DNA of 64,000 bases from Waddliaceae bacterium (lineage in GTDB: Bacteria; Chlamydiota; Chlamydiia; Chlamydiales; SLOH01), in contig JBBDJA010000025.1 of the NCBI GenBank assembly GCA_040880105.1, forward strand, positions 2,882 to 66,881, written 5' to 3'. Positions 5,353 to 7,888 of this stretch are shown piece after piece. Under the pieces are notes generated by a model. The model was not told the origin of the DNA. It did not search any database and saw nothing but the letters and a program-made list of their open reading frames with translations. Both the position numbers and the translations under genes were made by a program. Within the stretch, counting starts at the first letter, position 1; every line of letters begins with the position of its first letter.

Positions 5353-6126
5353 ATGTCAGAAACAAAGCGTCTATTTTTGGGAATGGAAGCGTGCGCTCCT
5401 TGGCCAAACGTATTTCCAAGTGGACGGCTGATCAAGACAAAGGACTCCCACATGACTCTTGTCTTCTTGGGAAATGTGGAGTATGACAAGATTGAGAAGA
5501 AACTGAAAGAGATTCCAAAGCCGCCTTTTCCCTTGGGGCTTGTGGGGAAGTTTTCTCGTCACCTTCTGTTGGGTAAAGTGATTGCTTGGGAAGTTGACTG
5601 CTTTCGTAGACAAAATGCGCTTTTGGATTATCAAATGGAACTTGCCGATTTTTTTCAAATAAAGGAACGTTACCCCTTCCTTCCGCATGTTACAGTAGCA
5701 AGAGGCAAATTCAATCAAAATGAGTGGGAACAATTTTTCACTCCCCTGCCGGTAACATTCAATCACATTCATCTCTATGAAAGTCTTGGAAATTCCAACT
5801 ACAAAAAGATTTTCACGCTTCCGCTAACCCCTCCCTTTGAGGAGTTGGACCATACAGCAGATGTGGGCTATACTGTTAATGGTTTATCACTCAATGAGTT
5901 GTATTTGCACGCGCAAATTGCCCTTTCCTTTCAATGGCCTCCCATGCTGAACTTCATTGAAGTAGAGAGATCCTTGCACAGTTTAAATGAGGTCATTATG
6001 GCGTTAAATGAAAGAGTGACTGTGGCAGATAGCGAAATAGGATGCGATCTTAAAGCGGTGAGCTTTCATGGTTTAATACAAGAGAACAGCGGAATTCTTT
6101 CCTGGGAGATGTTAGTCGATGTCTGA
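5353..6126 (+). CDS. Fusion of 2H phosphoesterase (ThpR/LigT-like RNA 2',3'-cyclic phosphodiesterase) and archease
   Basis: Residues 1-160 carry two HxT motifs (H33-M-T, H112-V-T) and the HLYES motif. Residues 161-257 carry archease motifs FEELDHTADVG, DLKAVSFH and a C-terminal LVDV. Confidence 0.85.
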   Translation: MSETKRLFLGMEACAPWPNVFPSGRLIKTKDSHMTLVFLGNVEYDKIEKKLKEIPKPPFPLGLVGKFSRHLLLGKVIAWEVDCFRRQNALLDYQMELADFFQIKERYPFLPHVTVARGKFNQNEWEQFFTPLPVTFNHIHLYESLGNSNYKKIFTLPLTPPFEELDHTADVGYTVNGLSLNELYLHAQIALSFQWPPMLNFIEVERSLHSLNEVIMALNERVTVADSEIGCDLKAVSFHGLIQENSGILSWEMLVDV

Positions 6127-7534
6127 ACTGAAAAAAATCGCAGATGCGACCTACTTAATGGAGAAGGTGGGTTCAATGCGCGTTCCAGGTCTTATCATAG
6201 CAACCGAAGAGCTTTTAAATCAGTGCGATATAGAGCAGCCTTTAGAACAGGTACGTAATGTTGCCACACTTCCCGGGATTGTGGGCCATAGCATTGCAAT
6301 GCCCGATATTCATTGGGGTTACGGCTTTCCCATTGGCGGGGTTGCAGCAACAGATGCCAGAAGTGGGGTGATCAGTCCCGGAGGTGTGGGTTACGATATC
6401 AATTGCGGCGTTCGACTAGCGGTTGTCCCAAGAGCCTTTAAAGAGATTGATAGCAAAAAGAGAGCCGCTCTTATCCAATCCATTTATCGCAATGTTCCCT
6501 CCGGTGTCGGCAACAGTCGCAAAGAAGGCAAGTCTTTAACAGATGCGGACTACCGCGCGCTTTTTGAAAACGGGGCGAGATGGTCAATTGAACAGGGATT
6601 TGGATTTGAGAATGATCTTGAGCATATGGAGAGCCATGGTGTGATTGAAGGAGCAAGCTACGATGCGATCTCAAATCAAGCCAAAGAGCGAGGTGCTAAA
6701 CAGCTTGGGTCGATCGGTTCCGGCAACCACTTTGTTGAAGTTGGCGAGGTGCAGCAACTGTTTCTTCCCGATACTGCAAAACAGTGGGGAATTGAAAAAG
6801 GGCACATGTATATTCTGATTCACTCGGGTTCTCGGGGGTTTGGTCACCAAGTCTGTCAAGATGCTCTCAATGTATTTATAAAAAAAGGATTTGATCAAGG
6901 GCTTCCCGATCGCCAACTCGTTGCAGCGCCGATTAATAGCCCTGAGGGTCAAGAGTATTTCGCAGCGATGGCAGCTGCTGCAAATTTTGCTTTTAACAAT
7001 CGCCAGCAGATTCTCCACTATGTGCGAGTCAGTCTAAATGAATCGCTTGGTATCCCGGGGAGTGAAGTGCATCTTGTTTACGATGTGTGCCACAATATTG
7101 CTAAATTTGAAGAGTACGACAATCAAAAGGTCTGCGTACATAGAAAAGGCGCCACAAGAGCCTTTGGACCGGGTCACAAAGAACTTGCCCCCATTTTCCA
7201 GTCTACCGGACAGCCGGTAATCGTTCCCGGAGATATGGGTCGAGCCAGTTACTTACTTGCCGGTCTTGGCAACGCACTTACATTCTCCAGCTGCTGCCAT
7301 GGTGCCGGACGCGCTAGAAGCCGGGTTAAGTCTAGAAAAGAGTGGCATGGCCGTGATCCGATTGCCTATATGAAGTCGCAAGGAGTGAAGGTGATGGCCA
7401 CATCCAACCGCACGATTGTAGAGGAAATGCCCGATGCTTATAAAGATGTAGATCTTGTCGTTGAGGCAGTTGAGGAGGCAAAACTTGCCACTCGCGTGGC
7501 AAAGCTTAAGCCTCACATGGTTCTTAAAGGATGA
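6119..7534 (+). CDS. rtcB: RtcB RNA ligase (3'-phosphate/5'-OH), long archaeal-like type
   Basis: MPDIHWGYGFPIGG, VGYDINCGVR, GSGNHFVEV, IHSGSRG, HNIAK, HRKGATRA and CHGAGR all intact. Overlaps the upstream stop by 8 bp. Confidence 0.97.
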   Translation: MSELKKIADATYLMEKVGSMRVPGLIIATEELLNQCDIEQPLEQVRNVATLPGIVGHSIAMPDIHWGYGFPIGGVAATDARSGVISPGGVGYDINCGVRLAVVPRAFKEIDSKKRAALIQSIYRNVPSGVGNSRKEGKSLTDADYRALFENGARWSIEQGFGFENDLEHMESHGVIEGASYDAISNQAKERGAKQLGSIGSGNHFVEVGEVQQLFLPDTAKQWGIEKGHMYILIHSGSRGFGHQVCQDALNVFIKKGFDQGLPDRQLVAAPINSPEGQEYFAAMAAAANFAFNNRQQILHYVRVSLNESLGIPGSEVHLVYDVCHNIAKFEEYDNQKVCVHRKGATRAFGPGHKELAPIFQSTGQPVIVPGDMGRASYLLAGLGNALTFSSCCHGAGRARSRVKSRKEWHGRDPIAYMKSQGVKVMATSNRTIVEEMPDAYKDVDLVVEAVEEAKLATRVAKLKPHMVLKG

Positions 7535-7597
7535 GCCTTTAGTAACACCTGAAAAGCCAACTTATGACTTTTCTCTTAATGACTTTAAAATTTTCTT

Positions 7598-7625: not shown

Positions 7626-7663
7626 TTGGCCTTTGTAAAATAACAAACCCACGAGGTAAAAAA

Positions 7664-7849
7664 ATGGCTGAGAATTTAGTTGTGATTAGCAAAGTAAAAT
7701 CTAGAATCAAACAAGCTGGAATGAACACTTCTACAACAGCGATCGACGCACTTTCTAAAATCGTTGATCAACAGATTAACAAAGCGATTGAAGAAGCGAA
7801 AAAAAATAAGCGCAAAACTGTAATGGACCGCGACTTTAGCGAAAGTTAA
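7664..7849 (+). CDS. Bacterial histone-fold protein (Bd0055/HBb-like singlet histone)
   Basis: 61 aa: LVVISKVKSRIK (alpha1), MNTS (L1), AIDALSKIVDQQINKAIEEAK (alpha2), RKTVMDRD (L2 with R-D clamp). Good RBS. Confidence 0.88.
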   Translation: MAENLVVISKVKSRIKQAGMNTSTTAIDALSKIVDQQINKAIEEAKKNKRKTVMDRDFSES

Positions 7850-7864
7850 GATTCCTTAAATGTT

Positions 7865-7888
7865 ATGGGGTCACTCTCGTGGCCCCAT
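7865..7888. terminator. Hairpin between convergent histone and acyl-CoA dehydrogenase genes
   Basis: atggggtcac-tctc-gtggccccat, overlapping the stop codon at 7871. Confidence 0.55.

Follow-up and report, generated by a model that had tools for sequence, protein, structure and literature searches.

To our knowledge, bacterial histones have been recognised as real chromatin proteins only since 2023, and HBb and HLp are the only two that have been characterised. The chlamydial developmental cycle involves a dramatic condensation of the nucleoid, so far ascribed to the H1-like proteins Hc1 (HctA) and Hc2 (HctB) only. Like the protein described here, these are small, basic nucleoid proteins of chlamydiae, but they are unrelated to it in fold and belong to other families (PF07432 and PF07382).

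The closest described system is HBb (Bd0055) of Bdellovibrio bacteriovorus HD100 (structures 8FVX, 8FW7, 8CMP, 9EZZ and 9F0E), whose binding mode is disputed between straight nucleohistone filaments (Hocher 2023) and DNA bending (Hu 2024). Its main DNA contacts are N22, R57, S9, T53, T8, S24, K10, K12, K52 and K16, with a clamp formed by R51 and D58 (Hu 2024). HBb represents the ‘bacterial dimer’ histones, a subfamily delimited by sequence clustering, with face-to-face (FtF), nucleosomal and DUF1931 histones as the alternatives, and distinguished by an alpha3 of 3–4 residues and by an alpha2 that lacks roughly one turn relative to HMf-type histones (Schwab 2024; Hu 2024). The FtF histones HLp (Leptospira perolatii, 9QT0) and HTkC (Thermococcus kodakarensis, 9F2C) have the same truncated-alpha3 fold and RKT/D motif, but form tetramers that wrap DNA. 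The archaeal nucleosomal histones HMfA and HMfB have the histone fold, RKT motif and R-D clamp in common with these proteins and differ in their longer alpha2, full alpha3, tetramers and hypernucleosomes.

Schwab 2024 and Hu 2024 both count Chlamydiota as a phylum that has ‘bacterial dimer’ histones. Waddlia chondrophila ADI38622.1, Simkania negevensis CCB88880.1 and CCB88888.1 and several proteins from Chlamydiae metagenome-assembled genomes (MAGs) were catalogued in Supplementary Table 1 of Hocher 2023, which also gave a cladogram of histone-fold presence across chlamydiae (its Fig. S12) and reported high expression of the Waddlia histone-fold protein (its Fig. 6a); the Waddlia and Simkania histones were later aligned in Fig. 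1b of Hu 2025. Histone-fold proteins of environmental chlamydiae have thus been known since 2023, and the gene described here is a further member, from a sparsely sampled family that is represented by two genomes in our collection and does not appear in the published lists. A literature search found no functional study of any chlamydial HBb-type histone, and the three Waddlia proteins that de Barsy 2019 examined by heparin binding and ChIP are, according to its main text, SWIB and DUF proteins, the histone not among them. An earlier note made from the DNA alone had anticipated both points, namely that chlamydial homologues might already be listed in surveys and that no functional work on them was known.

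A histone-fold gene in chlamydial housekeeping DNA

The gene lies in what we call the window, the whole 64,000-nucleotide stretch analysed here, which is part of a Waddliaceae bacterium assembly of 1.67 Mb in 32 contigs (90% complete). The window is chromosomal housekeeping DNA, carrying gyrB-gyrA, yidC, sucA and a beta-oxidation cluster, and the GyrB of the contig is 61–76% identical to chlamydial GyrBs (61% for Chlamydia crocodili) and at most 51% identical to any other. The histone gene is single-copy in the assembly. The same genome encodes Hc1 on another contig (PF07432, 64.7 bits; contig C12) and one protein of the HU/IHF family. No match to Hc2 (PF07382) was found in the assembly, an absence that carries no conclusion given 90% completeness and the low complexity of that family. 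The window host is a chlamydia of the obligate-intracellular type in which the histone coexists with an H1-like protein, whereas the host of HBb is a predator. Elsewhere in the window (32745–34580, −) lies a gene for a 610-aa protein with a Ser/Thr kinase domain at its N-terminus and an FGE-sulfatase domain at its C-terminus, an architecture resembling that of chlamydial Pkn1.

The 61-codon open reading frame (ORF) occupies 7664–7849 (+), stop included, and its product is MAENLVVISKVKSRIKQAGMNTSTTAIDALSKIVDQQINKAIEEAKKNKRKTVMDRDFSES. The protein has a mass of 6.8 kDa and a pI of 9.7, with 12 Lys and Arg against 8 Asp and Glu and with no His, Cys or Trp. A Shine-Dalgarno-like GAGG (7653–7656, +) stands 7 nt 5′ of the ATG. 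The 61-aa basic ORF and the ribosome-binding site proposed in the earlier note were both recovered, the former with exact coordinates, and the two flanking signals that it had listed survive in part. A consensus scan returned one weak sigma-70-like promoter candidate with a 9/12 match (ATGACT-16-TAAAAT, 7564–7591, +), but the three upstream matches counted are within the 1.5 ± 1.2 expected by chance from shuffled sequence. The downstream hairpin (7865–7888, unstranded; 10-bp GC-rich stem, 4-nt loop) is stable by RNA folding (ΔG −19.3 kcal/mol, z = −4.8; none of 200 shuffles equally stable). It sits between the histone gene and the convergent acyl-CoA dehydrogenase gene (7871–9754, −), spans the final codons and stop of the latter and has no T-run 3′ of it on the + strand, features that set it apart from a canonical intrinsic terminator.

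On the other side, rtcB (6119–7534, +) precedes the histone gene on the same strand across an AT-rich spacer of 129 nt in which no terminator is predicted. Transcription of the histone gene on its own, as a monocistronic unit, is plausible, and the convergent orientation of the dehydrogenase gene precludes co-transcription with that neighbour. Pfam matches in the upstream stretch 5353–7534 (+) identify a 257-aa protein in which a LigT-type 2H phosphoesterase is fused to a short archease. The fusion overlaps the start of rtcB and recurs near the histone gene in three other loci (L014, L016 and L022). The dehydrogenase gene belongs to the beta-oxidation cluster (7871–14784, −), which also comprises a FadB-like multifunctional enzyme, a thiolase-sized ORF and an AMP-binding acyl-CoA ligase.

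Sequence, fold and subfamily

Against the sequences of the Protein Data Bank (PDB), phmmer placed Bd0055/HBb on top (8FVX/8CMP; E = 1.2e-11, residues 1–58), ahead of HLp (E = 1.5e-6), HTkC (0.058) and archaeal histone A (~0.2). BLASTP aligned the protein with HBb over its full length at 34 of 59 identical residues (58%), in line with the estimate by eye in the earlier note that over half of the positions agree. The scores against general histone profiles fell below threshold, at 15.3 bits for Pfam PF00808 (CBFD_NFYB_HMF; cut-off 21.4) and 22.2 bits for NCBIfam NF043032 (archaea_histone; cut-off 50). These profiles were built mainly from longer eukaryotic and archaeal histones, so genes of this kind are usually annotated ‘hypothetical’, and the sub-threshold scores do not argue against a histone fold. 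The ORF had no Pfam match to Hc1 or Hc2 (PF07432, PF07382).

An AlphaFold2 model based on an alignment of 73 homologous sequences (pLDDT 92, pTM 0.70) predicts alpha1 at residues 8–17, L1 at 18–23, a 24-residue alpha2 at 24–47, L2 at 48–54 and a one-turn alpha3 at 55–57, reproducing the alpha1-L1-alpha2-L2 layout previously read from the sequence and adding the short alpha3. A single-sequence model, which fused alpha2, L2 and alpha3 into one helix (pLDDT 78), was dropped in favour of the alignment-based one. In Foldseek searches of the PDB with this monomer, HBb again came first (TM 0.91 for 9EZZ_B, 0.89 for 8FVX, 0.88 for 9F0E and 0.85 for 8CMP), followed by HLp (0.84) and HTkC (0.81), with HMfA/B, NF-Y and eukaryotic core histones near 0.6; every significant match was a histone. 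Superposition gave an rmsd of 0.8–1.5 Å on HBb versus 2.8 Å on HMfA/B.

With its histone fold, truncated alpha3, RKTxxxD motif, S9-K10 and alpha1 lysines and its clustering with HBb, the predicted protein belongs to the ‘bacterial dimer’ (HBb/Bd0055) subfamily, with which it also shares its size and short alpha2. HLp and HTkC (41% and 35% identity) are clearly more distant than HBb by both sequence and structure, which places the protein with dimeric HBb and outside the FtF class; identity to HMfA/HMfB is ~29%. The same motifs are present in the Waddlia (ADI38622.1/D6YWW1) and Simkania negevensis (CCB88880.1/F8L7X8) proteins. Sequence matches and the predicted model together support the reading that the gene, on a contig of a chlamydial chromosome, encodes a true histone-fold protein of HBb/Bd0055 type.

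DNA-contact residues

HBb and the window protein agree in S9-K10, the alpha1 lysines, the MNTS of L1, the RKTV of L2 and the R-D clamp. Nine of the ten main DNA contacts of HBb are identical in the window protein, the sole change being T8 to I8, and the clamp is kept as R50-D57 within R50-K51-T52-V53-M54-D55-R56-D57. Contact, clamp and RKTV-motif columns are 86–100% conserved across 73 homologues, with no variation at R50, T52 and D57 or at S9 and K10; the window protein also has K12 and K16. Both proteins lack the tetramerisation histidine, the window protein having no histidine at all, and natural two-domain doublets occur in the family.

The window protein departs from HBb in two further places. 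N48 takes the place of D49, a residue that contributes an additional salt bridge to the clamp of HBb, and a one-residue deletion shortens the alpha1/L1 junction (7709–7717, codons 16–18), where IKQ-AGMNTS stands against IKxKxGMNTS in most homologues. The gap is shared by one of 72 homologues, and the model is still confident there. Together, the deletion and N48 suggest that details of DNA binding may differ from those of HBb.

Distribution across chlamydiae and beyond

The HBb-type family is large. Exhaustive HMMER searches of a metagenome library of 1.8 billion proteins yielded 340 clusters at 50% identity, doublets included, and a pattern-based locus search of named genomes yielded at least 548 histone loci. 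Both of these methods were required, as a word-indexed protein search recovered merely three relatives. The nearest loci in named genomes are in chlamydial MAGs (Simkaniaceae, Waddlia/Waddliaceae, Parachlamydiales and ‘Ca. Sacchlamyda’), followed by Bdellovibrionota, Oligoflexales, Spirochaetia, Planctomycetota and Myxococcota, and the protein is conserved at 54–71% identity across many families.

Within the order of the window organism, 70 of the 300 genomes sampled carry the gene. Presence is stable within families (6/6 in f26, 4/4 in f27, 2/2 in each of f25 and f19), with high frequencies in Simkaniaceae (f43, 22/24) and Waddlia (f37, 6/8). These two families were identified through histone coordinates that coincide with those in named records, namely NZ_OZ244056 for G161 of f43 and JBGSQP01 for G037 of f37, to which G071 also belongs. 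The gene was not found in three other families (f3, 0/23; f29, 0/24; f31, 0/17), absence from a MAG meaning here that it was not found in the genome searched. Nor was it found in the 26 genomes of f35, inferred to be Chlamydia, or in the complete genome of C. crocodili, which fits the earlier statement that Chlamydiaceae use Hc1 and Hc2 without histone folds. Hc1 occurs almost throughout the order (261/300 genomes) and is present in 63 of the 70 histone-bearing genomes; the histone fold therefore accompanies Hc1 and does not replace it.

Several variants of the gene were seen along the way. In many Simkaniaceae genomes a second histone-fold gene, a divergent paralogue (~50 bits), lies within ~8 kb of the main copy (for example, G161:C1:1542779-1542955 and G183:C1:1042176-1042352); in S. 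negevensis the paralogue is CCB88888.1, which has an N-terminal tail rich in lysine and alanine. HBb-type two-domain doublets of ~125–150 aa are common in Bacteriovoracaceae and in ‘Proteobacteria’ bins (loci L067, L080, L084, L087 and L091; proteins P0004–P0014) and gave the strongest scores to the query. The histone of an ‘uncultured archaeon’ record (L071, CAZHUN010000023.1) is sister to a chlamydial one with support 99/91, and three records named ‘Verrucomicrobia bacterium SZAS-’ (L031, L098 and L102) encode GyrBs 65–66% identical to that of the window; all four are probably mislabelled or mis-binned chlamydial DNA.

Synteny and phylogeny

The Waddlia protein ADI38622.1 (D6YWW1) is 64% identical to the window histone, and the histone encoded at 6000–6188 of locus L175 (genome G071), the Waddlia orthologue, is identical to ADI38622.1. 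In W. chondrophila a gene for a Sel1-repeat protein (−) is followed by those for the histone (+), acyl-CoA dehydrogenase (−) and OmpA7 (−), matching WCW_RS06130, 06135, 06140 and 06145, and by this order the orthologue is WCW_RS06135. The acyl-CoA dehydrogenase and beta-oxidation cluster accompany the histone in Waddlia as in the window, where the order of the cluster corresponds to WCW_RS06140–06165. Compared with the catalogued chlamydial histones, the window differs in having rtcB upstream on the same strand, besides the one-residue deletion.

Convergence of the histone and acyl-CoA dehydrogenase genes is common to the window, Waddlia and Waddliaceae loci, and in L016 phosphoribosyltransferase (PRTase) and LigT-archease genes also lie upstream of the histone. 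Conserved local synteny of this kind indicates vertical descent, at least between the window lineage and Waddliaceae, and the gene appears to be vertically inherited within several chlamydial families. A maximum-likelihood tree of 92 domains and 60 columns clustered the chlamydial sequences strongly (0/500 shuffles), although not as a monophyletic group, and required seven label changes, at least three of them forced by well-supported branches. Its backbone is without resolution, so the tree does not settle vertical versus horizontal origin at the depth of the phylum.

Proposed role and alternative explanations

Taking together the observed sequence and fold membership, the conservation of contact residues, the chlamydial context, the phyletic pattern and the co-occurrence with Hc1, we consider it quite probable that the gene encodes an abundant, sequence-non-specific, DNA-bending dimeric nucleoid protein of the HBb type that acts beside Hc1. 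Dimer state, bending, abundance and nucleoid role are carried over from work on HBb. By that analogy, the protein would form a handshake homodimer whose contacts with the DNA backbone lie in the minor groove and are not sequence-specific. They would be made by the paired L1-L2 loops (N21, T22 and S23; K51 and T52; R56) together with the beginning of alpha1 (S9, K10, K12 and K16). Individual dimers would bend, and hence compact, DNA with no nucleosome-like wrapping. The histone would then share the nucleoid with other nucleoid-associated proteins, the H1-like Hc1 and one protein of the HU/IHF type, and nucleoid organisation is its likely role.

A stage-specific version of the same protein, as a late-cycle factor loaded into elementary bodies (EBs) to help Hc1 condense the nucleoid and not as a constitutive component, refines this explanation and agrees with it, and we give it a real chance that nonetheless falls well short of even. 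The lead comes from Waddlia. In Table S4 of Beder and Saluz (2018), whose header confirms the order of the RB and EB columns, WCW_RS06135 has normalised counts of 274.5 in RB and 1147.7 in EB (for a 189-nt ORF, not length-normalised), that is, 4.2-fold more mRNA in EB than in RB (log2FC −2.06, padj 3e-36). This enrichment almost equals that of hctA (log2FC −2.01), and among the rows of the table examined only 2 of ~139 genes have a log2FC of −2 or below. The presence of Hc1 in nearly all histone-bearing genomes points the same way. Against this, the evidence is one dataset from one species other than the window organism, with the gene assigned by position, and EB mRNA may be carry-over that says little about protein timing. 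The signal may also be regional, as the genes flanking WCW_RS06135 are EB-enriched too in the same table (log2FC −1.87 and −1.65). Four beta-oxidation genes within WCW_RS06140–06165 are likewise listed there as up-regulated in EB (log2FC −1.0 to −1.65). Bdellovibrio HBb, for its part, is high in both growth and attack phase.

The general reading, a bending nucleoid protein, has a competitor in the binding mode of Hocher 2023, in which close-packed dimers bind DNA end-on without bending it and form a straight nucleohistone filament. A co-crystal (8FW7) and a filament model exist for Bd0055, 58% identical to the window protein, which keeps the same contact residues, and sequence alone cannot tell a filament from bending. 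Later co-crystals, solution data and molecular dynamics nevertheless favour bending by individual dimers (Hu 2024), which makes the filament improbable for the window protein.

It is very unlikely that the protein, instead of serving as general chromatin protein, is tied to the RNA-repair genes upstream (the 2H-phosphoesterase/archease fusion and RtcB), for instance by regulating them. In favour of such a tie, rtcB lies close by in the same orientation, no terminator being predicted in the gap, and the LigT-archease gene is upstream of the histone in L022 as well as L016. Yet rtcB adjoins the histone gene in the window only, lying 3.6 kb off on the opposite strand in L014 and being absent from the other loci; the upstream gene in W. 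chondrophila encodes the divergent Sel1-repeat protein, the neighbour that is conserved is the convergent dehydrogenase gene, and homologues in other phyla have unrelated gene contexts. Operon linkage with rtcB was rejected, as it is not conserved across loci.

We regard as extremely unlikely a secreted effector acting on host chromatin, even though the protein is small and basic and chlamydiae do send chromatin-directed proteins to the host nucleus (NUE, and Wcw_0377 with a SWIB domain). Type III signals reside at the N-terminus, which in this protein is the conserved DNA-contact segment of alpha1, nearly identical in free-living and predatory bacteria, and the protein has no signal peptide or extra domain. 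The Waddlia orthologue, annotated ‘hypothetical protein’, is not flagged among the ‘predicted T3SS effectors’ in Table S4 of Beder and Saluz, and the gene was not found in the animal-pathogen genomes searched. Finally, there is a negligible probability that the ORF arose by chance or that the contig is a Bdellovibrionota contaminant placed in the wrong bin: short ORFs are often spurious and the assembly is in 32 contigs at 90% completeness, but linkage to a clearly chlamydial gyrB/gyrA and local synteny with Waddlia exclude both, and the nearest homologues are chlamydial and conserved across many families.

Implications for chlamydial nucleoids

An HBb-type histone is present in roughly one in four of the sampled environmental chlamydial genomes, and Hc1 occurs in nearly all of these as well. 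The immediate practical value of the finding is a correct annotation for a gene that profile libraries miss. Given the co-presence of histone and Hc1 and, in the Waddlia expression table, mRNA of the histone-fold protein as EB-enriched as that of hctA, the culturable Waddlia and Simkania are suited to the study of the role of a histone fold in a bacterial nucleoid. We tentatively suggest, as a conjecture with the odds against it, that in the chlamydial families that keep the gene a late-cycle histone loaded into EBs may condense the EB nucleoid jointly with Hc1. If true, a histone-fold protein would here be paired, in a bacterium, with one resembling a linker histone, and the loss of the former from Chlamydiaceae and from families like Parachlamydiaceae would signal that the construction of EB chromatin had changed.
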